A DNA stretch of 64,000 nucleotides from Acidobacteriota bacterium (GCA_963666215.2 CAXWPL010000001.1:288001-352000), one strand, 5' to 3'. Shown: positions 21,801-41,087, numbered from the stretch's first letter. Notes: generated by a model from the sequence alone, not told the origin. Numbers and translations: made by a program.

Positions 21801-21968
21801 GGTGAAGTAAACGGCGCCCGACCAGTTCTCGGCGCCCGGGAAGATGGCCGCTTCGCAGACGAGCACCGAGAAGCCAGCACGACCCAGCGCCGCCGCAGCG
21901 GTAACGCCGGCCGGACCCGCACCTATGACTATGGCGTCGAAATGATCGCCAGCAGGGGCGTTCTTCAT
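12894..21968 (-). CDS. Giant fusion: FixC-like flavoprotein / FixX-like ferredoxin / degenerate ACAD / ACAD / ETF-beta / ETF-alpha
   Basis: One open frame over 9 kb. FixC: GAGPAG, GVKEVI, GGFLYTN. FixX: CPAKVY and CIKCEAC. ACAD1: GRVQF, QIFGG. ACAD2: FALTEPTAGSD, LNGSKMWITNG, EKLGQRGSPT, IYEGTNEVQR. EtfB: VLLKPVP, EALALGVD, DLVLCGD. EtfA: QIGQTG, SGAPQH. Start placed at MKNAPAG (ORF track starts at 22040). Confidence 0.9.
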   Translation of the reverse strand: MKNAPAGDHFDAIVIGAGPAGVTAAAALGRAGFSVLVCEAAIFPGAENWSGAVYFTENLEHEEAFGREAVEAAPYERRLIERGAFLYNGHTLLGATVRGASVYNSCYTVLRPVYDRYLAEVAREHGVVLACETTVQSLIRHRGRVIGVHTERGPAYADVVFLAEGDASHLVTQEGYERVSPEEQAHGAPHFLQGVKEVISLPADEIDRRFGLGEGEGHGAAYEMLLRNATRNGRTARLNMGGFLYTNADSISLGFVLPLDNLKENFQGDHNLLMEWFKALPEIAKLIDGGTVSSYGAKIIRGGGLREVPRMVDDGLAIGGAASGIGLDFPYPNFTGPATAMGLYFARAVQAIAAENGGPRSRGGGGGGLDPAASPYTAAALQRTYLKELHASHYYRNVEYLKDWPGYVERTQMFFERQLDVINNSAFVLSRRNRSGVRRWWQLVRLLRRALPWRKRKPILADVADLSRTIGVAGLVRAAVTPRNLASAFINTLAAFFPDRRRSAVGSSACGEPLAGTVRPGTGISEAIDAQGARLRAMFRVMGGDEEAGRVPWLFGWYWRRFGPALAEAFSTIYRNDDRDVGDKLRTAARLFAAQVAIWDLLAAAALGVGLLLTVVVQWLVEMVQFGVLKWDRSAYRRQFANQLVEENLERIRLDDDTVRHTTSYEERLGTISYREGHHSHIKVLWPEPIGARAKLADSVLWNVCPAKVYEVRRNSAGMPGVVVNFENCIKCEACWRATGDVHWSRATPHRLVYQTYGPAQRMLHDYLVQRPEPQARVPVDSASLSTSTSTSTSPHWTRNWSPLASQARSEAPAARRLPLQAVRACVERSAASLEAYGDALAAAPLTLEPSGRAQLSGLLDAARAAFAEAREAWRDDSLASERELAGEAAITLWDDATERFDELRGHAEQGRPFWAEVLGKQLREHHFVGLHALLDTFESVGASSSTEFLEAADDAPYGSAASPAVQRIERWRWSQAWREIEAQPMRLASRRKTLRADCESLFGSQAVRALEHGEAPTEAQREWLRQNVAEAERAGREPGGTGEPATPAFGFRDVLLEELARADPAIAWLAASHLQALDLMNKSEGASPSLGDGGKWAACAHQGWLRVESSTVTTLHGELNFVPLALASRLVAVHDNKAYLVDLEQPGPRLEVRDVGTIGLMGAGIRQVRFDGYEVEAADVIALPSLEAGCDPRAAQQPVAGEPAADLIDVTLRDMLAIVRGAGEYLLGRARDHASGRVQFPGTFEDEAGRDTIAKFGAVKQLLAEMEAQRYLVEALTLHNPATGSRCSGAPAAKVLAAEAFGPALGSFSYNAGQIFGGTAFSEDDVIAKYYRDSSPFRFLIAHDDALRVQVGRDRLLAVEDGERLVPLSDAELWWLELGAAQPLFAITVERFREAVEIVETWAAGVDASAIARAIAAATVRGKGEVEEPLQQLVGGAVVRILGAKACLLRALWRLDAGLPAEATLEAAKLWVERLAAEVPNLPDEAALLAETVAIGEELLDQGELRAANIASAERYDVICTEDREYRSGAWLVEPFDPDHLRYVPEVLYNDPGLSSYWKELEGELRARFVEPSFEGLSYNRYLEKLHRIPQVDLDYMVERGFMRMPIPKRLGGGGALKAEYYVLCKLIGRYGDAALSLAIMANTSIGTTPVLIGMEQDLPRARAELEKVRSSPELLGDIRDGVDRLIAAMRRPNLVQLTADYTELMGMVRKRVVKSTVLKYLGGGFLRAFFAAGRAGQRRDIDGFEAHLREARDLLGDIVDGAANRLAEYPRRELAHEQFLQFISAGYISAFALTEPTAGSDSGGVKTFARLESRRVHRDDDGSLHFFVDEDGQSDRRNLVDAERLEFDYDDHRILYRYSDEADPAVIDHSDYDYDKDAPDRMRFYMHGDRRVDFTDIAQLRQVEGQLTYEFWVLNGSKMWITNGRFSHCMALYARTEPEGVTGFMVDRHAEGLVVGADEEKLGQRGSPTNELSFNNVRVPREGIIGFRGRGQVNALETLNTGRAGLAVTTHATIQEMVEDARELLLSRKSQVEGVGEADRLEHGDSDRTGPADARPLDLYWMGRVADELMATAGTTYELVGLLDNKHTESVRMESAIGKYYGSEAEHDVIDWMERLRGLEGQTHLHRIEKTRRDARVLNIYEGTNEVQRFLLLKDLVQRVLPSWDEAADAGNQAASSGVDEPPSLDDAADLVAALERAKSTLRELLVEAVRRFDQQIWANVGLQPCMFRLPEIAGLTKVIDAVLYRLSWCVRHQVEAEHRQCVERAARVFVRRALARIATLERRYRSSFEYLERNARPPELQLGYLSLEEHGTRTEGWGLMPKRLVPGPIHAPLAAPVRIAVLLKPVPMPAPRPRVDNAGFAEPMYTLSAADRAGLAEALRLKSRDAARVEVVAYAVAGTPATTLLREALALGVDRAVSIEPGETADGVGDGNGAAPFGDPAAVAHDPRFIADALAAALRLEPADLVLCGDRAADTEQGLLAPYLATLLGSSVHAQVETVGWSSGGEPSLEVSRSGWQGSALKQALPAVLGMAGDAGSELQYRLPALLRASTAEIETLSMRALVPDAESAHVIHRLRVSSLNRSNGDAVAGGLATTPEQAAAVVQRVVAQVGGGSSSEVVSPYGGRLLSFGEQPTDTDPSCIYVGEPSLGDVLWQGARPELHAAAQLADGVGLPLDLVLPIDGAEEAAAAIAGGAAAIAEPRRIYVVAADGMASFGAAGHLEWLEELWAMYRGSPQWLVGTSWMNELFSRLMASAPPGAGRRQSWSWFNVESIANDPLSAGSGAASGPNASAAGRGVQLATPIYGGAAAAAVSLPPQQREGLRVVTLGRSVQVDLGRASYAMPGSADSQVFYWSPRLDYCVADDPVATLLSRLGAGDTSIADAEVIIDFGYGAGGRDGIDQLAEPLRKLLADELGLPGVMIGATRKVTQDLELLPMDRQIGQTGFAVNPRLIIALAVSGAPQHVDYIGERATILSFNIDPAAPLMRLNEQRARPLVHPIVGDVWETVPRFIAAIRAHLSSGR
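19588..19611. repeat. (GATGTC)x4 tandem repeat encoding a Ser/Thr linker in the giant ORF
   Basis: Four exact hexamer copies, in frame, encoding the STSTSTST stretch just after the ferredoxin module. Confidence 0.85.
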
Positions 21969-22092
21969 GAAGAATGATTGCGCCGAGATTGCCCCGGACG
22001 GGGCGAATGATGAGGTCATGGTAAGGGATGCGCCGCGCACCGGCCAGACGGCCTGCTAGGCTTCAGTGCTCCCACCCACGGAGACCGGATTG

Positions 22093-23610
22093 ATGCGCAA
22101 AAACCTCGCTGTTGCCGGCGCCTTCTGTTTCGCTGCCGTCATCGCTGTCGGGATCGGAGGCGGGACGTCCCAGGGGGCGCAAACGCCAGCCCTGCTGCTC
22201 GCCAACGCGCTCATCGTCGACGGGTCGGGCAACGCTCCCTACGTGGGCGACCTGCTGATCGAGGGCGATCGTGTCACCGCGGTCGGCCCCGCCGGCAGCC
22301 TGCGCCCGCGCGGCACCTACGCCTACGAGGACCTCCATGGGCTGGCGCTGGCACCCGGCTTTGTCGACATCCACAACCACTCGACCGACCGCTTCGCGCG
22401 CGACCCCGCTGCCACCACGCAGGTGGCTCAGGGCGTGACCACCGTGATCGTCGGCGCCGACGGCGGCTCCCCCTGGCCAATCGACGACTATCTGGCCAGC
22501 GTCGAGGAGATCGCCCCGGCGATCAACGTCGGCACCATGGTCGGCCACGGGACGCTGCGCGGACGCGCCATGGGCGACGACTATCGGCGCGAGGCCACCG
22601 AGAGCGAGATCGCCATCATGGCCGAGCAGGTGGCGCGCGCTATGGAAAGCGGCGCCTTCGGCCTGTCGAGCGGGCTCGAGTACGACCCCGGCTTCTATTC
22701 CTCCACCGAAGAGCTCATCGCGCTCGCCAAGGTGGCGGCAGCGGCTGGCGGCTTCTACATGTCGCATACGCGCGACGAGGAAGAGGGCGTCATGGATTCG
22801 ATTGCGGAGGCGATCCGCATCGGCCGCGAAGGAGGACTGCCGGTGCAGATCTCGCACATCAAGATGGGCAACGCCTCGGTGTGGGACCGCGCCGGCGAGG
22901 CCCTCGATTTGATCGCCGACGCTCGCGCCGAGGGCATCGACGTCACCGCCGACCAGTATCCGTACACCGCCTGGCAGTCGGGACTCGGAATCGTCGTGAG
23001 CTCGCGCCGCTTCAGCGATCCCGTCGCGGTCGCCGAGGGCCTCGAGGCGCTCGGGGGCGCCGAGCGCCTGCAGATCGTCAGCTACAGCCCCGATCGCTCC
23101 GTCGAGGGCATGCGCCTGTCGGACATCGCCGCGCGCGAGGGACGCAGCGGCGCCGAGCAGTACATCGAGATGATGGCGCAGGGTGGCGCCGGCGTGATCG
23201 GTCATACGATGAGCGTCGAGGATGTCGCCGAGCTCATGCGCAGCCCCCACGTGATGACGGCCAGCGACGGTGGCATCGGCTCGGCACACCCGCGCGGCGC
23301 CGGCGCCTTTGCGCGGGTGCTCGCCTACTACACCCGCGAGCTCGGCCTGCTGTCGATCGAGCAGGCCGTGCGACGCGGCACCACGATGCCCGCCGACCGT
23401 CTCGGCCTCACCGACCGCGGCCGTATCGCCGTCGGCGCCGTGGCCGACCTCGTGGCCTTCGATCCCGCCACCATCGCCGACAACAGCACCTTCATCGAGC
23501 CGCTGCGGACCGCTGTCGGGGTCCACAAGACCTGGGTCGCGGGACAGGTCGTCTGGGAAGACAACGCAGGCACGCAGGCACGCCCCGGCCGAGTTCTGCG
23601 GAAACAGTGA
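22093..23610 (+). CDS. N-acyl-D-amino-acid deacylase family amidohydrolase (exported)
   Basis: PGFVDIHNH, QGVTT, GAFGLSSGLEY, SHTRDE, ISHIK, HPRGAG, ADLVAFD. Signal peptide present. Confidence 0.9.
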   Translation: MRKNLAVAGAFCFAAVIAVGIGGGTSQGAQTPALLLANALIVDGSGNAPYVGDLLIEGDRVTAVGPAGSLRPRGTYAYEDLHGLALAPGFVDIHNHSTDRFARDPAATTQVAQGVTTVIVGADGGSPWPIDDYLASVEEIAPAINVGTMVGHGTLRGRAMGDDYRREATESEIAIMAEQVARAMESGAFGLSSGLEYDPGFYSSTEELIALAKVAAAAGGFYMSHTRDEEEGVMDSIAEAIRIGREGGLPVQISHIKMGNASVWDRAGEALDLIADARAEGIDVTADQYPYTAWQSGLGIVVSSRRFSDPVAVAEGLEALGGAERLQIVSYSPDRSVEGMRLSDIAAREGRSGAEQYIEMMAQGGAGVIGHTMSVEDVAELMRSPHVMTASDGGIGSAHPRGAGAFARVLAYYTRELGLLSIEQAVRRGTTMPADRLGLTDRGRIAVGAVADLVAFDPATIADNSTFIEPLRTAVGVHKTWVAGQVVWEDNAGTQARPGRVLRKQ

Positions 23611-23707
23611 CGACCAGAAGCGAGCACCACCCGACGGAGCGGCACGACAGTCGGAGCACGAAACGAAGCTCCGACGGCGTGCCGATCGGCGACCTCCGAG
23701 CGCGGCG

Positions 23708-24460
23708 ATGAGCGCCGCTGGATGCGACGTCGAGAGCTTGGGGATCGTCGGCTTCGGCGCCTTTGGCAGCTTCGCCGCCGACCACCTACGCCAGCACTTC
23801 GATGTCATCGTCACCGACACCGATGATCGCGCAGCGGCCGCGCGCCAGGCCGGGCTCGGCTGGGCAGCGCTCGACGTTGTCGCCCGTTGTGATGCGGTTG
23901 TGCTTTCGGTGCCCGTCCAGGCCCTGTGCGACACGCTCGACGCCGTTGCTCCGCTGCTCAGCGCCGGCACCCTGGTGGCGGATGTGGCCTCGGTCAAGAT
24001 CGAGCCGGCTCGCTGGATGCTCGAGCGTTTGCCCGCCGAGTGCGAGATCATCGGCACCCACCCGCTCTTCGGCCCGAGGAGCGCCGTGGACGGCCTTGCG
24101 GGCCACCGCATAGCCATCTGTCCGCTGCGAACCGAGCGCACGCCGGCGATCCAGGCGTTCCTCGAGCGCCTCGGACTCGAGGTCATCGTCACCGACCCCG
24201 ACACCCACGATCGGCAGGCCGCCAAGAGCCAGGCCGTGGCCCAGTACCTGGGCCGAGCTCTCCACGACCTGCAGATCGACCAGTATCCGATTCGCACGCG
24301 TACCGCCGAGCTGTTCGCAGAGGCCGGCCGCCTCATGGCGGGCGACTCGCCCGAGCTCTTCGACGCCATCCAGCACCTCAATCCGCACGCCGCCGAGGCG
24401 CGCGCCGAGCTTCGCGAGCGCCTGGTTGCGTGGATCGGATCGCCACCCACAACCGACTGA
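23708..24460 (+). CDS. tyrA: Prephenate/arogenate dehydrogenase (TyrA-like)
   Basis: GIVGFGAFG, DVASVK, IGTHPLFGP, HDRQAA. Confidence 0.8.
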   Translation: MSAAGCDVESLGIVGFGAFGSFAADHLRQHFDVIVTDTDDRAAAARQAGLGWAALDVVARCDAVVLSVPVQALCDTLDAVAPLLSAGTLVADVASVKIEPARWMLERLPAECEIIGTHPLFGPRSAVDGLAGHRIAICPLRTERTPAIQAFLERLGLEVIVTDPDTHDRQAAKSQAVAQYLGRALHDLQIDQYPIRTRTAELFAEAGRLMAGDSPELFDAIQHLNPHAAEARAELRERLVAWIGSPPTTD

Positions 24461-24462
24461 GA

Positions 24463-25692
24463 ATGGTGCCGCCAGGAAGCAACTCCAACGCCACGCGAGC
24501 GCCAGCTCGGGCGCATGCCGCCAGCCAGCACGGATCCCACGAACCGACCGACAACGCGGCGGCGATCTTCTCGCAGGCCGCCGGGCTTCTGACGAGCTGG
24601 TATCACGAGCATGCGCGCGACCTGCCGTGGCGCCGGACTTCGGACCCCTACGCGATTCTGGTCTCGGAGCTGATGCTGCAGCAGACGCGCGTCGAGACCG
24701 TCGCGCCGCGGTTCGAGGAGTTCTTGGAGAGGTTCCCCGACTTCGAGGCGCTGGCCACGGCGACGGCCGAGGAGGTGCTGGCGGCCTGGTCGGGACTCGG
24801 GTACTACCGCCGCGCCCGGGCGCTGCATACGCTGGCTCAGATTGTTGTCGGCGAACATGGGGGGCGTCTCCCGGACGACCGTCAAACGCTATTGACGCTG
24901 CCCGGCATCGGGCCCTACACCGCGGCGGCGGTGAGCTCGATCGCGTTCGGTACGGCGCGCCTTTCGATCGACGGCAACGTGGCGCGGGTGGCTCGTCGGC
25001 TGCTTGACCTCGACGAGGATCCCCGAGCGGGCGCTGCTCGACGGCGGCTCGAGGAGGCGGCCAACGACGCGCTGGCGCGGTTGCCGCCGGGCACGCTCAA
25101 CCAGGCACTCATGGAGCTCGGGGCGACGGTCTGCCTACCGCGCACCCCGCATTGCCACCGGTGTCCGTGCGGGGAGATCTGCGTGGCGCGAGCCAACGGG
25201 CGCGAGCGCCACCCCTCGCCCATCAAGCGGCAGGCCGTGTACGACGTGGTGGAGGCGTCGGCGGTGATCGAGCAGGGCGGCAAGCTGCTGCTGTTCCGGG
25301 GTCAAAGGCCCGGCGTACTTCAGGAGATGTGGGAGTTCCCCACTCTCGACTCGCGGCTGGCCGACTCCTCGGCAGACCACGAGCAGCCCGGCACAGACAG
25401 CAGCGATTGCCTGCTGCGGCAGCTTCGATTGCACCTCAGAAGCCTCGGGTGGGAGCTGGTAGGTACCGAGCACCTCGGCCAGATCCGCCACGGAATCACC
25501 AACCGCCGGATTCGCTGCGAAGTGTACCGAGCGAGGCTCGAGCGGTCGACCCAGCGCTCTACAATTGGCTGGCCACAGGCGTCGGCGGAGCTCGGTCCGA
25601 GCGCCCATCGATGGCTGCCGTTACGCCAAATTGCATCGCTGCCGCTGGCAGCCTCGGCCCGCAAGACTCTGGAGCTGCTCTCGCCAAGCTGA
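24463..25692 (+). CDS. mutY: A/G-specific adenine glycosylase
   Basis: RDLPWRR, VSELMLQQT, WSGLGYYRRA, LPGIGPYTA, DGNVARV, Cx6Cx2Cx5C Fe-S motif, WEFP. Confidence 0.95.
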   Translation: MVPPGSNSNATRAPARAHAASQHGSHEPTDNAAAIFSQAAGLLTSWYHEHARDLPWRRTSDPYAILVSELMLQQTRVETVAPRFEEFLERFPDFEALATATAEEVLAAWSGLGYYRRARALHTLAQIVVGEHGGRLPDDRQTLLTLPGIGPYTAAAVSSIAFGTARLSIDGNVARVARRLLDLDEDPRAGAARRRLEEAANDALARLPPGTLNQALMELGATVCLPRTPHCHRCPCGEICVARANGRERHPSPIKRQAVYDVVEASAVIEQGGKLLLFRGQRPGVLQEMWEFPTLDSRLADSSADHEQPGTDSSDCLLRQLRLHLRSLGWELVGTEHLGQIRHGITNRRIRCEVYRARLERSTQRSTIGWPQASAELGPSAHRWLPLRQIASLPLAASARKTLELLSPS

Positions 25693-25935: not shown

Positions 25936-26421
25936 ATGACCTCAACCGAAAACCGCCGCAGGTTGCGCAACTTCCTGCTCGACAAGCCGGTTCAGTACCG
26001 CTACGGGCTCTACTTCTTCCTGGTGAGCGTGATGGCAGCAGTGGTCTCCCAGGTCCTGATGCTGCGCTCGGCGGAGACCCTCGTGCTCGGCACGCTGTCG
26101 GCTGGGGGTGTTGATCCGTCAATTGTCGAGAGCTTCGGCGCCGCGCCTCTGCGGCTGCTGGGACTGCTTACTCTGGTGCTGTTGCCAGCGCTCGCGCTGG
26201 TGTCGGTCGTCCTCGCGATCTTCCTGACACACCGATTTCTGGGCCCACAGGTGGCGATCAAGCGCCATGTGGAAGAGCTGCTCGACGGCAACTACGAATC
26301 TGTGTGCCGCCTCCGCAAGCACGACGAGTTGAGCGAGATCGCCGCTGGCCTGAATCGACTGGCGGCGGCGATGCGCGATGGCGTGGTCGCCCGACCTGAA
26401 CCGGAGCAGCGCGCGGCCTAG
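25936..26421 (+). CDS. Two-TM membrane protein with C-terminal HAMP-like segment
   Basis: RRRLRNFLL..QYRY, two TMs, THRFLGP..RLRKHDEL..LNRL. Paralog of 35131-35616. Confidence 0.8.
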   Translation: MTSTENRRRLRNFLLDKPVQYRYGLYFFLVSVMAAVVSQVLMLRSAETLVLGTLSAGGVDPSIVESFGAAPLRLLGLLTLVLLPALALVSVVLAIFLTHRFLGPQVAIKRHVEELLDGNYESVCRLRKHDELSEIAAGLNRLAAAMRDGVVARPEPEQRAA

Positions 26422-27697
26422 TGGTCGACCCGCCTCGAGCTCACCGTTTCGAGCCTGGCCGCCGCTAGCCCGGTACGTCCGCGGGCCCAGCCGCAGAGGC
26501 CGAGTCTGGCCCGACATGTCGCGGTTAAGTAGCGCACGACGATCAAAGCAGTTTATTTATATGTTTTTATGAGTTCTGATAGGTGACATTAATCAGAACT
26601 ACTTCAAACCAGGAGGGTGGCGGTGCCTACCCAGCGCGAGCAGCTTGCAAACACCGCGTCGGACGAACGCGGCTTCGGCCTGCTGATGACGCTTCTCGTT
26701 CTCGCGACGACTGTGGCACTCGGGATCAACATGATCTCGTCGGGAGTCACCGAGCTCGAGATCTCCGGCAACTACCGCAACCGAGCCACCGCCCACTTCG
26801 CGGCTGACTCGGGAATCGAGCAAACCTACGCCGACCTCAGGAACGGCGGCAGCTGGGTGCCGCAGCTGCTCAACATGTCGACCTGGACCCTCAAGCAGCC
26901 TTTCCCGAGCAGCTTCACAGTGAACGGCTTGACCATCAACGTGGCGATCGACGGCAGTGGCAACGCGGTTGCCGACAGCTACACCGTCGGGTCTCCGCAA
27001 ACGATCAGCAGCGGCACCTTCAGCCGCACGATCTTCCTTGCGCCTACCGTCGAGTTGGGCTGGAACGACGCGACGATCGTCTTCGCTACACGCAGCACTG
27101 GTACCGCCGGCACCTTCGACGATGCGCTCCAGGTGATCAAGGCCGACCTCCGCATGCATGTCGACTCGCACGGTGTGTGGGACAACGCGATCTTCGCCGG
27201 CAGTGGGGCGGCGGGAAACGCGATCAACGGCAACGTGGCGATCCGCGGATCGATCCATATCGTGGGAGACCCGCTCAGCCCGCCGACGATCGCTTTCTCG
27301 GTGATCCTGCACTTGACGAATCATAGGGCCAACGGTAGCATGGCCGGATGCTGCGGATTATCTACATTGTGGCCTCGGCTATATTCTCAGTCATCGGGAT
27401 CGCTGGCATTCCTGAAGACATCGAGGTTTGGCGAAAGTGGCTGGAACCCATAATGGCGTCCGAGTGGCATTGGTGGAATTACCTACTGATGGTCGTGGGC
27501 GCATCAGGTCTTGTCCACTCCACGTACCCGTGGCTGAAAGAAATTCCTACGATTCCGAAACGGCTCCACAAGCTTCCCAGGAAACTCGGATGGGTTTATG
27601 TCCCGAAGATGGGAAAGGAGCTAAAAGTAAGGTAATTATCCCTTGACTGTATAAGCATTTCGGGCTAAAATGGCTCCATTGATAGAGGAGATAGGTC

Positions 27698-28633
27698 ATG
27701 CCACCAGGAAACAGAAAACAGCCGAAACGAGCCAAGTCGTCCGAATCCCAGTATTCGCTCATGGAGTTCATGCGCGAGTTTCCCGACGACGAGACGTGCC
27801 TTACCTGGCTTTGGGAAAACCGCTGTTCGCCTGCCGGCAAGAACGCCATGTGCCCGAAATGCGAGGACATGCGCGCTTTTGAGCGGTACAAGACGAAACA
27901 GCAGCGCCAGTCGTGGACGTGTACGACCTGCGGGCACCATATCCACCCGACCGCTGGAACGATCTTTCACAAATCGTCCACGTCGCTGCAACTGTGGTTC
28001 TACGCCATCTACCTGATGACGAGCACACGATGCGGGATATCCGCGAAGCAACTTGAGCGCGAGCTGGGCGTGACCTACAAGACGGCGTGGCGCATGGCGC
28101 ACCTGATCCGTAACGAGCTTATGGAACAGGGCGACGAGCCTCTGTCCGGCGACGTGGAAGCCGACGAGATATACCACGGCGGCTACCGCAAGGGACGGCG
28201 GGGCCGAGGCGCGGCTGGCAAGACTCCCGTGTTCGGGATGGTCCAGCGCCAAGGGAACGTGGTCGCCATGACGGTTCCCAACGTGAGAGCTGCAACGCTG
28301 CAACCGAAGATCATCGAGCGGGTGCTGCCATCGTCCAGCATCTTCACTGACGAATTGGGTTCCTACCAAGGGCTCGACTACGGCAACAACATGGGCTACC
28401 GCCACCGGCGCATCAAACACACGGAGAAGGTGTACGTAAGCGGAGAAATCCACACGAACACTATTGAGGGCTTCTGGTCGCTGGTGAAGCGTGGAATCAG
28501 TGGTGTCTACCACTCGGTATCCGCTAAGCATCTTCAGGGCTACCTGAACGAGTACGCTTGGCGATACAACCACCGAAACGAGCGCCGCTCGATGTTTCGG
28601 ACGCTACTTCTTCGTGCTGCGCTTGGGCAGTGA
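27698..28633 (+). CDS. IS1595 family transposase
   Basis: Zn ribbon CPKC..CTTC, TAGTIFH, VEADEIY, FTDE, HTNTIEGFWS, YLNEYAWRYN. Confidence 0.95.
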   Translation: MPPGNRKQPKRAKSSESQYSLMEFMREFPDDETCLTWLWENRCSPAGKNAMCPKCEDMRAFERYKTKQQRQSWTCTTCGHHIHPTAGTIFHKSSTSLQLWFYAIYLMTSTRCGISAKQLERELGVTYKTAWRMAHLIRNELMEQGDEPLSGDVEADEIYHGGYRKGRRGRGAAGKTPVFGMVQRQGNVVAMTVPNVRAATLQPKIIERVLPSSSIFTDELGSYQGLDYGNNMGYRHRRIKHTEKVYVSGEIHTNTIEGFWSLVKRGISGVYHSVSAKHLQGYLNEYAWRYNHRNERRSMFRTLLLRAALGQ

Positions 28634-28747
28634 GGGTTTCTCGTCCTTGCCCGGATCGACCAATGTGTTTAGGTTCTTCATGAAATCGGCGCGCTTCGGA
28701 ATCGGGATTTCGACACCGGCGGGAGTCTTCTGCTTCTGTTCGCTCAT
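28604..28747 (-). CDS. 47-aa small protein convergent on the inner transposase
   Basis: Hand translation MSEQKQKTPAGVEIPIPKRADFMKNLNTLVDPGKDEKPSLPKRSTKK. Below the ORF-track cutoff. Confidence 0.5.
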   Translation of the reverse strand: MSEQKQKTPAGVEIPIPKRADFMKNLNTLVDPGKDEKPSLPKRSTKK

Positions 28748-28821
28748 GACTCGAGTCTATCCGACAAGGCGGTTCTTAGGGAACGCGGGCGTTCAGCTCC
28801 GTGCCTCGAGTGGGTGTTTAA

Positions 28822-30384
28822 GTGTCTGAATTAAAACAACTTAGCCTACTCGACAGGCTCGAGGAGCCCTACGAAGCCCTGCTGACACCAAACGAAATTT
28901 TCAAACTGCTCGATGCGGACATGCTCAGGCGACTGGCCGAGGACCGGAGAATCGAATGGAAACCCGCCAGTTTTCAAGGCCATCCGCTCGGAGAATACAT
29001 CTCGATGTGGGCGAACACCGCCCCCGAGGGCGGCATCATAGTCATTGGTGTTTCCGATGACGGTCGCTTGGAAGGTCTTCGGGCAAAAGGAGATCCATAC
29101 ATCAACAAGATGGAGAAGAACCCTCGCACCTTTTGCCCAGACGCAATTGTCGAAACGTCTCGAATACCGGTCACCAACACAAAGGATAACTGCGACTTCG
29201 TACTCGCCTTTCGAGTTCAGTACCACAAGAGCCGCGTCGTCAAAACAAACAAAGGCCGAGCATATACTCGACGGGGCGATTCTAAGTACGAAGTTCATGG
29301 TGCCGAGTTGCTCGAGCTGCAAGCCGACAAGGACGAGCTCAGCTTCGAAGCGGAACCAAGTCGTCTTTCCTATCCGGATGAATTCGATCTCAAGGCTATT
29401 CGATCCTTTACTGAAAACGTCGCCGGAATACGGGACATGGAGGAGGGCCACACTCGAGAGGACATCTTGTCTCTGATGCACCTTGGTGACAGTACGACGG
29501 GAGAGTTTCAGCCGAACATCGCGTGTACCCTGCTATTCGCAAAGGACTCCCGAAAGGAGATTCCGGGATGCAGGGTCAGGTTTCTCAGGTTCGATGGGGA
29601 CGAAGAAGGAACCGGAGGGAAATGGAACGCGGTCAAGGATGAGGTAATCGATGGCCAAGTACCACAGATGATTGTGGAAACGGACACGCTTATCGAATCC
29701 CAGATTCGCACTTTCTCGAGGCTGGATTCGAACGAACGATTCACGCCACAGCCCGAATACCCCAAAACAGCTTGGCATGAAGCGATCGTAAACGCGTGCG
29801 TGCATCGCTCCTACGGGAATGGTCTGAAAACCACGAACATCTTCGTGAAGATGTTTGACAACCGGCTGGTCATTGAGAGCCCCGGTGGATTTCCGCCATT
29901 CGTAACCCCGGAGAACATCTACGATACCCACCGTCCGAGAAATCCGTACTTGATGGAAGCCATGCGACATCTTGACTTCGTGAAATGCGCACACGAAGGG
30001 ACGCGTCGAATGCGCGCGGTCATGTCGAAGATGTCCTTACCAGATCCAGAATTCCAGGAAAAGGAAAGCGGCAGCTTTCGTGTGCGGGTCACGCTTCGGA
30101 ATAACGTTCATCAACGAAAGGCGTGGGTGGACGTTGATGTAACGGAAGTGATCGGCACTTTGCTCGCTCAGCAATTAGACGAAAACGAGAAGCGATTCGT
30201 GAACTTCATCGCAGAGCATGGTGAATTGAATGTGACCGAAGCCGGCCGACTATCCAGGCTGAGCTGGGCGACTGCCAAGAAAATCCTGATGAAGCTGGTA
30301 GAACGGGGCATTCTTCGCCACGATCGTCGCCGCGATATCGATCGCGATCCTCATGCCAGGTTTAGGCTCAACAAACCGGAATAA
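28822..30384 (+). CDS. Schlafen/AlbA_2 domain + RecG-C-like HATPase + wHTH protein
   Basis: EDRRIEWK..WANTAPEGGIIVIGVSDDG (AlbA_2), EAIVNACVHRSY, DNRLVIESPG, RNPYL, EGTRRM, C-terminal HTH. Confidence 0.85.
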   Translation: MSELKQLSLLDRLEEPYEALLTPNEIFKLLDADMLRRLAEDRRIEWKPASFQGHPLGEYISMWANTAPEGGIIVIGVSDDGRLEGLRAKGDPYINKMEKNPRTFCPDAIVETSRIPVTNTKDNCDFVLAFRVQYHKSRVVKTNKGRAYTRRGDSKYEVHGAELLELQADKDELSFEAEPSRLSYPDEFDLKAIRSFTENVAGIRDMEEGHTREDILSLMHLGDSTTGEFQPNIACTLLFAKDSRKEIPGCRVRFLRFDGDEEGTGGKWNAVKDEVIDGQVPQMIVETDTLIESQIRTFSRLDSNERFTPQPEYPKTAWHEAIVNACVHRSYGNGLKTTNIFVKMFDNRLVIESPGGFPPFVTPENIYDTHRPRNPYLMEAMRHLDFVKCAHEGTRRMRAVMSKMSLPDPEFQEKESGSFRVRVTLRNNVHQRKAWVDVDVTEVIGTLLAQQLDENEKRFVNFIAEHGELNVTEAGRLSRLSWATAKKILMKLVERGILRHDRRRDIDRDPHARFRLNKPE

Positions 30385-30687
30385 TTGGTCGCTGCCTTGC
30401 TCTCTCCCTGCCTTATACACACAAGGGATAGTTACCAAAAGTAAAGGGTCAGTTAATTTGGATACACGGCAACGAGCAAGCCATTCTGGTATTTGTGGAA
30501 GCAGATGACGGTAGGACTTATGAACTCACGTTCAGTGGTCGATGGAACACCGACCTTCAAAAAATGACGACAGATGATCGGCTGTGCGCAATCGGACACG
30601 TAGATAGGGTAGAAATCGACAGCGTGTCGTTGTCTGATTGCAGGCTGCTTAGGTGAACACACTTCTGGGCGCAGATGCGGGACGTGA

Positions 30688-31895
30688 TTACAGGAGCTGC
30701 AACTTGACCCGTAGATATTCCATGCCACGGTCGCCCTTAATGCGGTTGCATGAGCCACACAGCAGTTGCAGGTTGCCGATGTGGTGAGTGCCGCCCTTAG
30801 CGCGGGAGATGATATGATCGACCTCCAGGTGACGCGGCTCGAAGTGGGCGCTACATCCGCCGCAATTGCCGCCCTGGGCACCGTAGAGCGTCTGCCGGTT
30901 GGCCGTGCAGTTGTAGGGCGGTATCTTCCCCAGGTCGGTACGGTGCGGAATATCGGTGCGGTGGGAGCCGTCGTAGTACAAGCCCAGTTCATCGTGCATG
31001 CGTCTCTGGACCAGCTCGGCAGCTTTGGGGCTAATGTCGATGCCGATCCACTGACGGTTCAATCCCTGGGCCGAGATGCACGTTGTGGCGCAGCCACAGA
31101 ATGGTCGAGCACCATGTCTCCTTCGTTCGAGCTGGCAGCGATGATGCGGTCGAGCAACTCGAGTGGCTTCTGGGTGGGGTAGCCGACGCGCTCCTTCGCA
31201 TTGGCATTCAGGAAGGAAAGCTCCCACACATCGCGCATAGCCTTGGTGCCGGAGGTAGCAACATAGGTCTGAGCAAGGCTGCCATCGGACTCTATCCGTG
31301 TCGTTCTGTTTTGTCCCTTGTGCCTTTTGATTCCCTTTGCGCTGTGCGGCTCAAACAGTTGATTGAACTTTGCATCTCCAGACTTGCCAAACATGAGCAC
31401 GACATCATGCATTCTCTGAAAGTTCTTGGTCGCACCAGTCCAGCGGTGGTAGCTCCACACGATCTCGTTGCGGAAGTTGCGTCGCCCGAACACCGCATCC
31501 ATGACCAGTTTCAGGTAGTGGCTCATGGTGGGATCGCAGTGCAGGTAGATGCTTGCCGTAGGCTTCATTGTGTGCCGCAGCCCCAGGAGCCGCGCGGCCA
31601 TGTAAGCGAGATAGGACTTGTCCGATGGAGTCATGGCGGCGAGCAGCACCCGATACAGCGCGGGGTGTTTAGCTTCGATCAGGTTGATCCACTCGGCGTC
31701 AACGTCCGAGAGCGTCCAGGTGTCCTTGAACGCGGCTCCGGCCGCCTTAGATCCGATCGGGGCCGCGTAGTTGGCCTTGGAGTTAAAGGGCGGATCGAGG
31801 TAGATCAGGTCAACGGACTCGCTGTTCATGCCGCGCATGATATCTAGGCAATCGCCAGTCCAAATGGTCTGGTGCGCCCAGTTCGGGGCAGCCAT
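30688..31895 (-). CDS. Beta-class N6/N4 DNA methyltransferase fused to an HNH endonuclease; 1-bp frameshift near 31103
   Basis: VDLIYLDPPF and YPTQKP, then (frame change) PFCGCATT, GIDIS, and HNH CGGC..VDHIISRAKGG..NLQLLCGSCNRIKG. Confidence 0.88.
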
Positions 31896-31898
31896 CAG

Positions 31899-32792
31899 TT
31901 AAGCAACCAGGTCCCGGTATTTCAGCGGGTCGGTGTTGACGATGCGCCGCAACGTATCCATGAAGATACTCGGATTGTCGCGGTTGTTGAACCGCCACTC
32001 CAATTCTTCGAGGTAGCGGTCCATGTGCTTCACGCTGATCTTGTGGAAAGAACCTACAATGGAGCGCTTGAACAGGCTCCATACGCCTTCGATGTTGTTG
32101 GTGTGCACGTCTCCGACGACCCACTCATCGGCTCTGTGATTGACCGTAGCGTGCCGCGTGTCGTCGTCTCCGATGCCAAGGTAGGACTTCAGCTCGTCTG
32201 TATAGATTGCCTCGGTTTCGTCGGTGACGTGGCGCTCGATGAATCCGTGAAGGGTGTGCTTGCGGATGTCTGGGATGCGTTCGAGCCGGACCATTCCGTC
32301 ACGCTGGATTGCACCCGCGACCCATGTTTTACCCTTACGGGAGCCCTTACCGACGCCGCGCCTGCGGCCGCCGACCAGCGTCTCGTCAACCTCGACGATT
32401 CCGAACAGCGTGGGGCCGGTGAAGCCGTCGTTTCCCATCGCCTCTCTGATGCGGTGACAGAGATACCAGGCGGTGCGGTAGGCGACACCGAGAGTGTTCT
32501 GCATCTGTATAGCAGATATGCCTTTCTTCGAGACACACATCAAGTAGATGGCTATGAACCACTTGCGAAGTGGAAGGTGAGAATCGTGCATGATCGTTCC
32601 GGCCGTGACGCTGAACTGGTAGCGGCATGAGCGGCACTGCCACTTGTGGCCCTGTGGAAGCTCTGCAACGTTCGTGTCGCCACAGCGTGTGCAGGCCACG
32701 CCTACTGGCCACCGAAGCTGTTCCAAGGCGTCGTTGCACTTGGAGTCACAGTTGAAACGGTCCATCAACGAAACGAGGCTGTAATCGGTCAT
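31899..32792 (-). CDS. IS1595 family transposase (outer element)
   Basis: CTRCG..CRSC, TAGTIMH, VEVDETLVGG, YTDE, HTNNIEGVWS, YLEELEWRFN. Confidence 0.95.
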   Translation of the reverse strand: MTDYSLVSLMDRFNCDSKCNDALEQLRWPVGVACTRCGDTNVAELPQGHKWQCRSCRYQFSVTAGTIMHDSHLPLRKWFIAIYLMCVSKKGISAIQMQNTLGVAYRTAWYLCHRIREAMGNDGFTGPTLFGIVEVDETLVGGRRRGVGKGSRKGKTWVAGAIQRDGMVRLERIPDIRKHTLHGFIERHVTDETEAIYTDELKSYLGIGDDDTRHATVNHRADEWVVGDVHTNNIEGVWSLFKRSIVGSFHKISVKHMDRYLEELEWRFNNRDNPSIFMDTLRRIVNTDPLKYRDLVA

Positions 32793-32970
32793 GGCTCAGA
32801 CTCCCAAGAAACGGAGAAAGCTACCCAAGAATGCTACGCAGCTACCAGACCGAAAGTTCATGGAGAAGGTGTTTGGCAAGCGCATCATGAAGAAGGTCGA
32901 TGCACTCGTCTCCGAGCTGTCGGAAGATGCTGGCAGGAAAGAGATTTCAACGTCCATGAGAGAAAGATAA
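32791..32970 (+). CDS. 59-aa basic small protein divergent from the outer transposase
   Basis: MAQTPKKRRKLPKNATQLPDRKFMEKVFGKRIMKKVDAL.. Its ATG overlaps the transposase start (CATG); it ends just inside the IR. Confidence 0.5.
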   Translation: MAQTPKKRRKLPKNATQLPDRKFMEKVFGKRIMKKVDALVSELSEDAGRKEISTSMRER

Positions 32971-33968
32971 CCCATGGACAATGATTCGTCAAGTGCATAA
33001 TCACCGCTTTCTCTGGCACCGCCGACGTCCGTAACAACTACGCCACCGCCGTCTCCGAATTCGGTGCAACGGATGCCGCCAAGCTACCCGCGCTGCCGAC
33101 GGTGGATGTAGATGGCGTATCCGTGGAAACGATGGAAGCGATCGTTCGTCTCAAGCACGGCACCATCACCATCAGCGGTGCTGGGGACATTGGCCAGATC
33201 AACGACAACACCAACGGCTACAAGGAAACGATGGACTCGGTCCGCGCCGACGGCACCGTCACTCCGGCCAGCGACGTCTACACCGACGATTGGGGTGGCT
33301 ACGACGCCGCCGACCTCGCGTTCCCGACGCTCGACGACCCGTACACCGATCCGGCCACCGGCACCTTGTGGGCGCATCATCGCGATTTCCTCGATTCGGA
33401 GTCGCTGACCATCACCGAGACCGAGATCTCCACCAACGTCGCAGCCTTCTCTCACTCCGACGGCAGCGGCAACTCGATCGCCTGGGACCCTTCGGCGGGC
33501 GTGCTCAACATCACCGGAATCATCAAAGTCGCCGGCGACATCCATCTGGGACGACACATCGGCCCGCCCGACAGCCGTGGCCTCGAATACTCCGGCACCG
33601 GCACGATCTACTCGACCGACGACCTGTACATCGACGGCGACCTCGTGCCGGTCAACAACTACATCCACGACGGCAACCTCGGGCTGATCGCCGATACTCA
33701 TCTGCACATCGCCAACGCCGCACAAATCAACGTGATGGCGGCGATCTACGGCGAGGATCAGGTCACCGTCGCCAAACAGACCATCATCGCGGGCGCCATC
33801 GTCTCGAACTACTTCGACATGGGCAGCAACGTGCCGTCGATCTACCACGTGCCGCTGCTGCCCTCGAACCTGCCGCCCGGGATGCCGGGTGGCGGCGAGA
33901 TCGGCGTGATCAAGGGAGCCGAGATCCGCAACTGGTTCCCGATCACGGACAGGTAGACGAGGCCCCGC

Positions 33969-34382: not shown

Positions 34383-35050
34383 TCGTGCCGCGGCCAGAAC
34401 GCGTCGGGAACGAGGGCTTCTCGCTCCTCGAGATGCTCATCGTGACGGCCCTCGTCGGCCTGCTGATGGGCGGCCTCGCGGGGATCATGCAGAGTGGGCA
34501 GAACACGTTCGAAACCCAGCAGGCCGACATGAACATCCGTCAGGAGGCCCGCGTGGCGCTCGATCTGGTGATGCGCGAGACCCGCCTCGCTGGTTACCAA
34601 ATTGCCAACGTCGCCGAAACGCTCACGGTGGCGTCGCCAAGTCAGGTGCAGTTCGCTGGCGACATCGACGACGGCAGCGACTTTCCGCCGTGCGGGAACG
34701 TCTTCGAGAGCGCCGTTAACGGCGGCGTGGAGCGCATCACCTATCAGCTCGTGAGCGGCAGCTTGCTGCGCGCCGTCGACTGCTGGGACGGTGGCACCTG
34801 GACCAACGAGATCAACAATCAGCTGATGACGCCGAATCTGATCGGGCTGCAGACGCTGTTCCGTTATTTCGACGAAGACGGCGCCCAGATCGCGGCTGGC
34901 GGCGGGGCTCTGACTGCCGCCCAGCGCTCCGCCGTGCGCTCGATCGCGGTCTCGTTCGACCTGCTCGATTCGGGCACCACACAGCTGGTGGGGGATACCC
35001 ACGCGAACTTTCAGATCACCGCCCATGTGGCGCTACGGAACAAGCAATGA
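34379..35050 (+). CDS. Type IV minor pilin (PilW-like)
   Basis: EG|FSLLEMLIV and QEARVALDLVMRETRLAGY. GTGA overlap with the upstream gene. Confidence 0.85.
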   Translation: MIVPRPERVGNEGFSLLEMLIVTALVGLLMGGLAGIMQSGQNTFETQQADMNIRQEARVALDLVMRETRLAGYQIANVAETLTVASPSQVQFAGDIDDGSDFPPCGNVFESAVNGGVERITYQLVSGSLLRAVDCWDGGTWTNEINNQLMTPNLIGLQTLFRYFDEDGAQIAAGGGALTAAQRSAVRSIAVSFDLLDSGTTQLVGDTHANFQITAHVALRNKQ

Positions 35051-35130
35051 GCCAAGCCGCCTCCAGCCCCTTGCGGGAACAAACCATCGGCAAGCCTTGG
35101 CAGCACCGCGGGCAACCAGGAGCGACGACC

Positions 35131-35616
35131 ATGACACGACGCCGCAACCAGCGGAAGCTGAGGAACTACCTCCTGAAGCCCGCCTTGCAGTTCCGCTATG
35201 GCTTCTATCTGTTCGCCATGACGGTAACCGTCTCGATGGTGATCCAGATGCAGCTCGTCTACACGCTGCAGCAATCGCTTGTGGCCTCACTCGCCGCCAT
35301 TGGTTTGGACCCATACCTGCTTGCGCAGGCGGTGACGCGACCGCTTCGAACACTCGCGGTGCGAACCGCGATGCTGACCCCCATGGTCGGCTTGTTGTGC
35401 GTCGGTTTCGCGATCTACGCCACGCACCGTTTCGTCGGCCCGCAAGTTACCCTCAAGCGTCACGTGCGCGCCCTGATCGCCGGCGACTACGACAGCGTCT
35501 GCCGGCTGCGAGCCAAGGACGAGCTCGGCGAGATGGCCGAGGTGCTCAACGAGCTCGCCAAGTCGCTCAAAAAGCGTCACGACGTCGCCGAGCACCCCGA
35601 GCGGAAGGTCGCCTAG
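35131..35616 (+). CDS. Two-TM HAMP-like membrane protein, paralog of 25936-26421
   Basis: RKLRNYLLKPALQFRYGFYLF..THRFVGPQV..CRLRAKDEL. AGGAG RBS upstream. Confidence 0.8.
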   Translation: MTRRRNQRKLRNYLLKPALQFRYGFYLFAMTVTVSMVIQMQLVYTLQQSLVASLAAIGLDPYLLAQAVTRPLRTLAVRTAMLTPMVGLLCVGFAIYATHRFVGPQVTLKRHVRALIAGDYDSVCRLRAKDELGEMAEVLNELAKSLKKRHDVAEHPERKVA

Positions 35617-35723
35617 CCGGACTCTGGGATGTCGCCGCATAGAGCGCACGCGACCCACGCAGGAGTGCGCCGAATCGGGCTTGCGCGCCTGCTGGGCGTC
35701 TGCTTTCCTCTTCGCTGGTACGC

Positions 35724-35798
35724 GGCCCCATCGTCTAGCCTGGCCCAGGACACCGCCCTCTCAAGGCGGAGACACGGGTTCAAATCCCGTTGGGGCTA
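35724..35798 (+). tRNA. tRNA-Glu (CTC)
   Basis: Acceptor GGCCCCA/TGGGGCT, anticodon arm CCGCC-CTCTCAA-GGCGG, T arm GGTTCAAATCC. CCA is not encoded. Confidence 0.95.
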
Positions 35799-35857
35799 CT
35801 GCTTCAAAACCCTTTGACAGCAAGGCCAACCGACTCACCGGCCATACGGAGCGGTTC

Positions 35858-36196
35858 GTGTTGAACCGCTGGGTGCCGGAGCCGGCTCGACGAGGGGATC
35901 CAGAGCCACTTCCGCTGGCGGAGAGAATCCTACTCACAGGCAACGCCACGCTGGGCTACGGCTTCTTCTCGGGCAAGGTCTACAACGGGAGTTCCTGGCA
36001 GGTGACAGAAATCACTTTCTCTGTCGGAGCGCTGGAGAAAGACGGCTCGGAGCGCTGGAGAAGGCAGTTTCGGCACAGCGTCACGATTGCGCCCCTCACG
36101 ACGGGGAGCTTCAGCCTGCGCGTCACGGGTGAAGAGGGGGTTAAATCGACGGTGTGGAGCCTAGTCGCCGTACTAGGCTATCCGGCGCAGCGATGA
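35858..36196 (+). CDS. Hypothetical beta-rich protein or fragment; start uncertain
   Basis: Protein-like frame FSGKVYNGSSWQVTEITFSV..TIAPLTTGSF directly downstream of the tRNA. Confidence 0.4.
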   Translation: MLNRWVPEPARRGDPEPLPLAERILLTGNATLGYGFFSGKVYNGSSWQVTEITFSVGALEKDGSERWRRQFRHSVTIAPLTTGSFSLRVTGEEGVKSTVWSLVAVLGYPAQR

Positions 36197-39678: not shown

Positions 39679-41087
39679 GGGGATGTCACACCGTCCGTTG
39701 AACTAAGGCGACGGTGAAGTGGTTGGGGATTGTTACGCAGTACGGTGCTCCTGCTCAAGGGGAACGTCGACGGCGGTGTTGAGTGCGGCATCGAGCTTGG
39801 CGATGTCGCGGTAGCCACGAACCCTCCGGAACTTGCTCTCGGCCTCGATGAGTGCAGTAACCGCCCATCGAACGATCATGCTCCCGGAGCGCCACCGCTT
39901 TACGTTGCGGCTGACGTGTTTGATCGTCCCGTTCAGGTTCTCGATCGTATTCGTTGAACGTAACGTCCGAAGCAGCGGCCCCTGAACTCGGAGCCGAGTG
40001 ACGGTGAGCGTCTCTTGCATTCCTTCTCTGAGCGAGGCCGCTGCACCGGGGTGATCGGTCTCCAGCTCCTTGACCACGGCGTCGAGCTGCTTGGTCGCTG
40101 CCGTGGCCGTCTCCGCCTTCCACGCCTTGCGGATCTTGGCTGCGAACCAGGGCCGGATATGCCCTGGCAGATGCTCCAATACGTTCTTGATCTTGTGGAC
40201 ACGGCAGCGCTGGATCAGGGCCCACTCGCCGAACGTGTCGCGCACTGCTTTACGGAGGCCCTTGGAGCCATCGATTACCACCAACCGCGCCCGTTCGACG
40301 GGCATGCCGCGCTCGATCAACTGCCGCAGCAGCGACCGGCACACGTGGGAGCTCTCCGTGGTGCCCTCTACGACACCCAGCACATGCTTGACGCCGTCCG
40401 CGTCGATGCCCATGGCGATCACCAACAAGTGCTTGCCCATGTGCGTGCCGTCGATCACCAGCACCGGCAGGTCCACTTCATTGAGCGGTTGGGCCAGGTA
40501 CTGCTGCACCTGCTTGGCTGTACGCGCTACGAACCGCCGCGACACACTCGAGCGACTCGTTCCCGACGAAGCTCGCCCGTCGTCGAGCCGCTCTAACGAG
40601 CGCTCGTACTTGCGCGTCGTGACGCCGCACAGGATCTGCTCTACGGCGCGCTCTTCGAGCGGATCTGTTGCCTTGAACCTCTCCCAGTGCGGCAGCGGCA
40701 GCTCTTGGCCATCGACGCTCCGAGCCCGCGGCTTGCGTACCTTGACCCGCCGGCCGCCCATCACCAGCGAGCCCTCGTCGTAGCCGTGTCGGTACGCCCG
40801 CCGCTGCTGTGACCGCGCGTGGCGTTCTCCGCATAGCTCAGCTCTGTCTTGCTCGAGCAGCGAACCCAACACCCCGAAGCCCGCGTCCATGACCAGAGCT
40901 CGTAGATCCGATCGCGCCGCTACCACTGCCTCCAGGAGCGGGTTCTCTTGGCGCTCCGCTTTCCTACTTGTCTCTGTTCTGCGACTCTTGCCCATGACGG
41001 TGATCCTCCATGCCTAGTGGATTGACCCCGACACACTATCGAGGTCGGATCACCGTCACCTTTTTCAACGGAAAGCGAGACATCACC
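39679..41087. mobile_element. IS256-family insertion sequence
   Basis: Imperfect IRs GGGGATGTCACACCGTCCGTTGAA.. and the reverse complement GGTGATGTCTCGCTTTCCGTTGAA.. flank the transposase. No TSD seen. Confidence 0.85.
39733..40995 (-). CDS. IS256 family transposase
   Basis: LVIDGT, IDGSKGL, QRCRVHK, STNTIENLN, FRRVRGY. Confidence 0.95.
   Translation of the reverse strand: MGKSRRTETSRKAERQENPLLEAVVAARSDLRALVMDAGFGVLGSLLEQDRAELCGERHARSQQRRAYRHGYDEGSLVMGGRRVKVRKPRARSVDGQELPLPHWERFKATDPLEERAVEQILCGVTTRKYERSLERLDDGRASSGTSRSSVSRRFVARTAKQVQQYLAQPLNEVDLPVLVIDGTHMGKHLLVIAMGIDADGVKHVLGVVEGTTESSHVCRSLLRQLIERGMPVERARLVVIDGSKGLRKAVRDTFGEWALIQRCRVHKIKNVLEHLPGHIRPWFAAKIRKAWKAETATAATKQLDAVVKELETDHPGAAASLREGMQETLTVTRLRVQGPLLRTLRSTNTIENLNGTIKHVSRNVKRWRSGSMIVRWAVTALIEAESKFRRVRGYRDIAKLDAALNTAVDVPLEQEHRTA

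Follow-up and report, generated by a model that had tools for sequence, protein, structure and literature searches.

Insertion sequences (ISs) of the IS1595 family are characterized by terminal inverted repeats (IRs) and an 8-bp target-site duplication (TSD) (PMC8101967, PMC5704250), and the transposases of all groups in the family, other than IS1016, bear an N-terminal zinc ribbon (PMC8101967). Transporter ISs (tISs), in which an IS-like structure contains passenger genes unrelated to transposition, are an established class (TnCentral preprint; ISsaga paper), and are reported to occur only in the IS1595 and IS66 families (TnCentral preprint). Two described examples, MTnSag1 (tISSag10) and tISCpe8, display 25-bp IRs, 8-bp repeats and AT-rich targets, and measure 1.7-2.0 kb (PMC5704250). 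At positions 27292-33013 of a 64,000-nucleotide stretch of an Acidobacteriota genome (GCA_963666215.2, CAXWPL010000001.1:288001-352000; 'the window' hereafter, meaning that whole 64-kb stretch), two elements of this type were found, one inserted within the other, with a Schlafen-type gene lying within the ends of the inner element, and with a gene for a fused DNA methyltransferase and HNH nuclease (hereafter methyltransferase-HNH) and a membrane-protein gene lying within the ends of the outer one. Taken together, the reading of this locus as two nested IS1595 tISs, the attribution of their nesting to AT-rich target choice, and the identification of their cargo are held with considerable confidence.

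The outer element (27300-33005, 5706 bp) interrupts the first gene of a pilin-like operon. Its IRs match at 23 of 25 positions (left, transposase-distal, 27300-27324, plus strand; right, transposase-proximal, 32981-33005, minus strand), and it is flanked by the duplication GCTTTCTC at 27292-27299 and 33006-33013. The inner element (27631-30436, 2806 bp), sited within it, has IRs matching at 22 of 25 positions (left, 27631-27655, plus strand; right, 30412-30436, minus strand), is flanked by AAAAGTAA at 27623-27630 and 30437-30444, and interrupts the outer element's own AT-rich membrane-protein gene at the transposase-distal end. All of these coordinates, repeat counts and duplications, which had been put forward in an initial annotation of the window, were reproduced. 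Both elements possess imperfect terminal repeats of ~25 bp that start with GGTnAnnnT (GGTAATTAT, inner left; GGTAACTAT, inner right; GGTGATTAT, outer right; GGTGATCCT, outer left). At up to three mismatches, the terminal 25-mers of each element occur exactly twice in the window and zero times in 100 dinucleotide-preserving shuffles, so that no such IR pair is expected by chance. The mismatches between paired ends are inherited asymmetries rather than signs of decay, because relatives carry identical end differences: the GAC/GTG difference of the inner element is found again in a locus (L074) whose transposase is 88% identical, and the ATCC/ATTA difference of the outer element recurs in the genome's second outer-type copy.

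Removal of each element in silico reopens a frame, as had been claimed. Excision of the outer element joins the two parts of the host gene (26617-27299 and 33014-33956, both on the plus strand; no Pfam family for the 5' part) into an open frame of 541 aa. The 3' part matches genes in 533-590-aa open frames in six genomes of the same family, and the restored frame is collinear with 533-540-aa orthologues in four same-family genomes, with no gap at the junction; by alignment, these orthologues are the empty site for the outer insertion. Excision of the inner element similarly joins the 5' part of the membrane-protein gene (27348-27630, plus strand; 94 codons, with an N-terminal hydrophobic helix) to its 3' part (30445-30656, plus strand) in a frame of 164 aa.

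The inner transposase (311 aa; 27698-28633, plus strand) and the outer transposase (297 aa; 31899-32792, minus strand) are 42% identical, and both are matched by PF12762 (1.1e-41 and 3.1e-34, respectively) and by model NF033547 (214 and 208 bits against a cut-off of 75). The zinc ribbon of the outer transposase is recognized by PF12760 (7.6e-09; 35.8 bits against a cut-off of 25.4); that of the inner transposase reaches only 16.9 bits, yet keeps the four invariant Cys columns. Both proteins keep all 41 invariant columns of a 14-sequence alignment (A1), including four Cys, two Asp and one Glu, and the catalytic columns D136, D199 and E263 (outer-transposase numbering) are kept in both. Each element exhibits a DDE_Tnp_IS1595 domain, the four zinc-ribbon Cys, the IRs and the 8-bp TSD of the family, and each encloses passengers of the kind that distinguishes a tIS. 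Judged from their sequences, both are autonomous IS1595-family tISs, one in the other, and the account given in the initial annotation (two nested, passenger-carrying IS1595 elements with 8-bp duplications and distinct transposases of their own) is borne out, with autonomy apparent. The elements may further belong to the ISNwi1 subgroup, which we take to have the end consensus ggnnatTAT and a DDEK signature; three of the four ends here fit that consensus.

As a mobile element, the locus follows the published rules for IS1595 tISs. It resembles MTnSag1 and tISCpe8 in its ~25-bp IRs, 8-bp duplication, AT-rich targets, single IS1595-type DDE transposase, internal passengers and small size. It differs from them in its cargo (Schlafen-type and methyltransferase-HNH genes, rather than antibiotic resistance), in two further genes that are conserved in the outer clade, and in the nesting of one element within the other.

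The inner cargo (28822-30384, plus strand) encodes a 520-aa prokaryotic Schlafen-type protein that contains a Slfn/AlbA_2 domain (PF04326, 6.4e-12), a GHKL-type HATPase_c_4 domain (PF13749, 4.8e-18) and a weakly matched C-terminal HTH (HTH_28, 0.0049). It bears the sequence EDRRIEWK, an intact Ex4ExK form of the motif defined as Ex4(E/D)xK (PMC12330615). In this it resembles the antiphage pSlfn effectors, as it does in the fusion of HisKinase-like and HTH domains; Slfn-HisKinase-HTH is the second commonest (19.2%) of the 55 architectures into which 5,930 prokaryotic Schlafens have been sorted (PMC12330615). A partial match to the PADLOC pAgo model (6.1e-43; model positions 59-449 of 1121) fits the Slfn-GHKL-Argonaute fusions that have been reported (bioRxiv 10.64898/2026.05.29.728809). 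This single-gene protein, a putative Schlafen-type nuclease joined in one chain with a GHKL ATPase and an HTH domain, would most likely serve as an effector of abortive infection, cleaving tRNA or some other RNA. The accessible portion of PMC12330615 makes no mention of the carriage of Schlafen genes on ISs, and the word 'transposon' occurs in it zero times. A 48-aa minus-strand open reading frame (ORF) behind the inner transposase (28602-28748) was considered as a gene and dropped, with no match in 14 inner-type loci.

The methyltransferase-HNH gene of the outer element (30688-31895, minus strand) begins three bases downstream of the transposase, and combines a beta-class N6/N4 DNA methyltransferase (PF01555, 2.7e-30, on 31059-31895) with a C-terminal HNH nuclease (PF01844, 5.7e-14, on 30688-31227, which also holds the methyltransferase tail). 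The DPPF and HNH motifs are both present; the methyltransferase part resembles M.RsrI, CcrM and M.MboIIA, and the HNH part is similar to the corresponding domains in Cas9 and in group II intron maturases. Among the 120 best homologues listed, most are ~400 aa in length and contain both PF01555 and PF01844, with identities of up to 80-82%. One-polypeptide Type IIC/IIG restriction-modification enzymes, such as MmeI and BpuSI, join an N-terminal PD-(D/E)XK nuclease to a gamma-class methyltransferase. The predicted protein here similarly places a methyltransferase and a nuclease in one chain, and could likewise restrict and protect; it differs in its beta-class, M.RsrI/CcrM-like methyltransferase and in its C-terminal HNH. 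It would most likely modify host DNA and cut DNA that is unmodified, and could both restrict invaders and penalize loss of the element.

A small basic protein of 59 aa is encoded divergently from the outer transposase (32791-32970, plus strand); by tblastn, 29 of 35 outer-type loci have it in the corresponding place. Thirteen copies were extracted, each with an ATG start and a length of 48-59 aa, and they align with indels that preserve the frame; the ORF is taken, from this pattern of conservation, as a real, conserved gene of the outer IS clade. It has no Pfam or PADLOC family. The first ~70 residues of the interrupted membrane protein comprise a module, VPGxxDDxxxWxxWL, followed by a hydrophobic stretch and WW, and the module is common to the end-proximal ORFs of four sister elements (L011, L012, L015 and L018); a search of the Protein Atlas with a sister membrane protein gave no usable match. 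The ~50-aa basic protein and the membrane protein would be accessory genes of the clade as a whole. A search of Rfam with 26500-33800 returned no family.

The other copies of such elements, and the cargo of sister elements, were then surveyed. A scan of a genome collection identified 35 outer-type loci with transposase identities of 40-79%, distributed over Acidobacteriota, Gemmatimonadota, Chloroflexota, Deinococcota and other phyla. At 11 of the 35, the ends are accompanied by a perfect 8-bp duplication, at three by one with seven of eight positions matching, and at nine a recognizable end pair lacks a good duplication; at 12 loci no end pair was found. The delimited elements are 1475-3477 bp long, and all exceed a bare IS (~1.1 kb), the surplus usually consisting of one ORF that begins just inside the far end. 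A Pfam search of 18 such cargo ORFs yielded a single match, to DUF7946, in an ORF that is matched by the PADLOC defence candidate PDC-S42 at 1.1e-40. A metagenome scan with the outer end motif returned one locus (L098), which proved to be a chance match, with no similarity of region and no related ORFs.

The inner-type transposase is matched at E<=1e-40 in 65 of 401 genomes of the phylum (a tally that takes in the unpublished genomes G024 and G049, used in that count only). Identity is 88%, 76% and 76% for the best matches, and does not exceed 58% for the others. Ends with perfect 8-bp duplications were present in 11 of 14 inner-type regions, delimiting elements of 1995-3684 bp, and one more region has ends without a duplication. 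The cargo of these sisters varies: by PADLOC, three elements carry the trypsin-like candidate PDC-S45; two carry a DUF433/HTH gene paired with a PIN-like gene, one of them with a ClpP-like gene as well; one carries a nested rve-integrase IS; and the remaining cargo has no recognized family. The nested integrase gene (IS3/IS481-like) lies in the closest relative (L074:3371-7054, genome G215; 88% identical), and represents a second case of nesting in the clade. In two genomes of different genera (L075 in G039 and L076 in G082), the same 2073-bp inner-type element, with a 288- or 381-aa ORF of no recognized kind as its cargo, was found at different sites with the duplications GATCTGAT and ATTAAAAT.

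A further inner-type relative, with 66% transposase identity, was located in a viral contig (L122:1279-3295), adjoining genes for a major capsid protein and a head-tail adaptor. At its left end, 25 nt agree exactly with the inner left end in the window; its right end is degenerate, it lacks a duplication, and its cargo (282 aa) belongs to no family. A scan of viral contigs with the outer transposase found no relative, and the best annotated relatives of the transposases among 72,556 plasmid records were less than 45% identical and bore a generic name only.

Methyltransferase-HNH genes were also found to travel on other IS1595 elements. With an intact homologue (P0121) as the query and a threshold of E<=1e-60, 10 of 401 genomes from the phylum gave a match, and outside the window's genome the gene occupies 18 places in nine genomes, 13 of which lie within 1 kb of an IS1595 transposase match. 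Comparison of copies within genomes served to delimit four such elements: one of 2577 bp in G186 (three copies, with duplications AGAACTTG, CTACCTAA and TACTCTTA), one of 2756 bp in G366 (three copies, two of them read, with duplications TTCGATTT and ATCCTGAA), one of 2696 bp in G196 (two copies, one read, with duplication CAGCGCTG) and one of 3004 bp in G190 (L099:404-3407; two copies, duplication AAAAGTTC in one). The transposases of the first three are 37% identical to the outer transposase. The G190 element resembles the outer element more closely, with a transposase 72% identical and a methyltransferase-HNH 65-69% identical to those in the window, a small basic ORF, an end-proximal membrane ORF and an 8-bp duplication; it differs in that its methyltransferase-HNH lies on the opposite strand relative to the transposase, its membrane protein is unrelated in sequence, and it holds no nested element.

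The window's own genome contains a second outer-type copy of 1071 bp (G000:C1:626466-627536, equivalent to L002:1502-2572), flanked by the duplication GAACGGAC. It terminates on the right exactly as the outer element does, with a match of 23 of 25 positions at the left end, and over its right 573 bp the two are 97% identical. Its transposase breaks off at residue 114 (CHRI) and continues as KGDRGMEY, which corresponds to the C-terminal tail of the HNH domain (CNRIKGDRGMEY; 26 of 31 nt matching 30716-30746). This fusion indicates that the copy, which is non-autonomous and encodes a 157-aa membrane ORF, is a deletion derivative of an element that also possessed methyltransferase-HNH. The joints 27323>30697 and 30737>32447, seen in contigs of three public runs (X5, X6 and X9), belong to this derivative. 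The derivative was considered as an empty site for the inner insertion, and was rejected as such: the similarity of its 157-aa ORF to the restored 164-aa frame is not significant (E 0.42). On another contig of the same genome, a 2614-bp IS1595 element (G000:C2:685053-687666, partly L007) has a perfect 22-bp IR and no target duplication, and encodes a transposase and then a methyltransferase that bears a long extension at its C-terminus (respectively 34% and 35% identical to the corresponding pair of the outer element); the search for an IR pair around the IS1595 transposase of contig C5 was negative.

AT-rich targets, as reported for MTnSag1 and tISCpe8 (PMC5704250), are also evident across this group. 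In 31 elements with perfect duplications (within which copies in one genome represent separate insertions, although the elements are related to each other), the mean GC content of the TSD is 31%, compared with 58% in the 300-bp flanks, and is the lower of the two in 28 of 31. The genome as a whole has a GC content of 65.1%, the outer element without the inner one 56.2%, the inner element 54.8% and the membrane gene ~50%, and octamers with no more than one G or C are about five times denser in the outer element than in the genome (6.9 versus 1.3 per kb). Nesting is predicted by such a target rule in a GC-rich host because AT-rich octamers are denser in these elements: such sites, rare in a chromosome of 65% GC, would be offered more often by foreign DNA of ~55% GC, for example by another tIS.

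Support for the assembled arrangement was sought in public contigs; junction support here denotes assembled contigs, not reads, and one run may be the source sample. Six runs from three studies contain 0.89-0.95 of the sampled words, and sponge- and seawater-metagenome runs contain small shares; contigs were compared from runs X5, X6 and X9 (one from each of the three studies) and from X1. In each of X5, X6 and X9, a single contig spans 26500-27778, which comprises the host flank, the outer left IR, the inner left IR and the start of the inner transposase, and a further contig in each (28528-31199, 28534-31548 and 28519-30920, respectively) crosses the inner right junction. The question of whether the junctions are spanned was thus answered on contigs, with three of the four bridged in three studies. 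X1, labelled as a sponge metagenome, provided eight short pieces, of which seven agree with the window throughout and the eighth differs from it once. Summed contig depth rises 10- to 40-fold over baseline at 27964-28207 and 31624-32111 in all three communities; these are conserved core regions, in the inner transposase, at the N-terminus of the methyltransferase and at the C-terminus of the outer transposase, and the excess indicates that many related elements are present in those communities.

An assembly artefact, in which repeats were chimerically joined into an apparent nest, has the repetition of the outer right end in the genome in its favour, as well as an imperfect window consensus, which follows from two differences common to all three read sets (a C rather than the window's G at 29070 in the Schlafen gene, and an extra base after 31102). 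The single contigs that traverse host flank and both left junctions in three studies, the additional contigs across the inner right junction, and the reopening of a frame by both excisions (the host frame matching orthologues) render this explanation extremely improbable. A rival account of the history, to which we assign a nearly even chance, accepts the nest and holds that it arrived as one unit in a single local event, the inner element having entered the outer one elsewhere, at another site or in a plasmid or phage. The outer IRs, the outer transposase and both duplications are intact; no outer copy free of the inner element was seen in the genome or in the listed contigs of the four runs; and the inner relative beside capsid genes demonstrates that outside donors exist. 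Weighing the other way, replicative transposition has been suggested for the family (PMC5704250), in which case a donor copy would be expected, and the composite and the inner element each occur just once in the genome; AT-rich target choice, moreover, makes nesting in place equally easy. The history is consequently not 'fully reconstructable', as the initial annotation had it: that the inner element entered the outer one stands, but whether this occurred before or after the outer element reached the host gene cannot be read, because the 5.7-kb composite keeps the outer ends and transposase and could move as a unit. The description of the insertions as 'recent' holds in that the duplications are perfect, and is qualified by the presence of the nested structure in contigs of three studies, including a diverged X9 strain that differs from the window at at least ~13 sites across 5.7 kb (~0.2%). 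Empty sites, similarly, are represented by orthologues for the outer insertion, and by none in the genome or the listed contig joints for the inner one; among the 15 joints listed of 40, none skips 27631-30444 or 27300-33013, and contigs cannot prove absence.

Several observations count against the interpretation of the locus as two intact, nested, cargo-bearing tISs. A 1-nt frameshift adjoining 31102 divides the window's copy of the methyltransferase-HNH gene into 31059-31895 and 30688-31227, and one extra base at that point, G in X5 and X6 and A in X9, reopens the frame. Within the VLDPFCG motif (31100-31105), X5 and X6 read CCA (Pro, giving LDPF), X9 reads CTA (Leu, giving LDLF) and the window is frameshifted, so that one AdoMet-motif codon exists in three states in four data sets. 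This could reflect assembly error at a short run of C or recurrent change at a conserved codon, and the enzyme may be inactive or under counter-selection in some strains. The PADLOC models that match it cover the methyltransferase part only, to about residue 303 of a 402-aa homologue. None of 49 sister loci carries a methyltransferase, an HNH domain or a Schlafen gene, and the protection of E. coli that was demonstrated for two of seven tested Schlafen genes was obtained with other architectures (DUF262-Slfn and Ig-like Slfn5), not with Slfn-GHKL-HTH (PMC12330615). For the inner insertion, neither an empty site nor an outer copy lacking the inner element was found in the genome or the listed contigs, and searches with the 3' part of the 164-aa frame gave no relative that would support its restoration. 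For the outer right junction, coverage comes solely from two contigs (32572-33006 and 32977-33800) with an overlap of ~30 nt, which fits the repetition of that end in the genome. Finally, the ISNwi1 assignment leans on an assumed end consensus, and serves as a lead only.

The initial annotation further described the locus as a small mobile defence island, and this was not upheld. A defence island was taken to be a cluster of several recognized defence systems in one neighbourhood; here, the flanks consist of the interrupted gene without a family, two prepilin-type genes and a HAMP-domain protein (35047-35616), that is, of a pilin-like operon, and PADLOC matched the methyltransferase and otherwise gave only the partial pAgo-model match. 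A literature search, conducted mostly on material short of full texts, returned no publication describing IS1595 elements with defence or methyltransferase cargo. The passengers may instead serve the elements and not host defence, with no immune island present; methyltransferase-HNH would then be an addiction system or a transposition helper, the Schlafen-GHKL-HTH protein a regulator, and the membrane and small basic proteins integral accessory genes of the IS. We regard this as a real possibility, though not the leading one: methyltransferase-HNH travels with two transposase lineages that are 37% identical and is intact in multicopy elements, the small protein is kept in 29 of 35 loci, the flanking genes are pilin-like, and 30.4% of Schlafen genes in prokaryotes have no defence genes nearby (PMC12330615). 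It is opposed by the defence-candidate and toxin-antitoxin genes of the sisters (PDC-S45 in three inner-type elements, PDC-S42 in one outer-type element and DUF433 with a PIN-like gene in two), and by the intact Ex4ExK nuclease motif of the Schlafen protein. A broader proposal, which we consider doubtful, is that IS1595 elements with GGnnATTAT-type ends are dedicated cross-phylum shuttles for single-gene immune or addiction modules, which assemble defence islands by nesting and then move as a unit. The modules would be Schlafen nucleases, methyltransferase-HNH, trypsin-like PDC-S45, DUF7946/PDC-S42 and DUF433-PIN pairs, carried in a cargo slot at the transposase-distal end; in the outer clade, that slot would keep a conserved membrane-anchor N-terminus joined to exchangeable C-termini, and the targeting of AT-rich octamers would favour insertion of the elements into each other and into foreign DNA of other kinds.

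Returning to the nested tISs themselves, the locus offers a well-documented natural case of very small transposons stacking passengers. Of particular interest are its Schlafen cargo, the elements that carry methyltransferase-HNH in several copies per genome, the small protein conserved in the clade and the account of nesting in terms of a target rule. Prokaryotic Schlafens (recently recognized as antiphage candidates) and a widespread methyltransferase-HNH family are linked by this locus to vehicles of IS size that pass between phyla. Should the cargo genes act in defence or addiction, such elements would provide a cheap route for the spread and clustering of immune genes, and the AT-rich target rule a testable reason for the formation of such clusters.

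Some further features of the neighbourhood were recorded. The pilin-like operon is bracketed by two ORFs (25936-26421 and 35681-36196) with similar N-termini (RRLRNFLL..P.QYRYG..F). Upstream, the minus strand contains two long ORFs, at 12894-22040 (3048 aa) and 22063-24885 (940 aa; no Pfam family), and 7 kb downstream of the nested elements, at 39733-40995, lies a transposase gene of the Mutator/IS256 family (PF00872, 9.5e-46).

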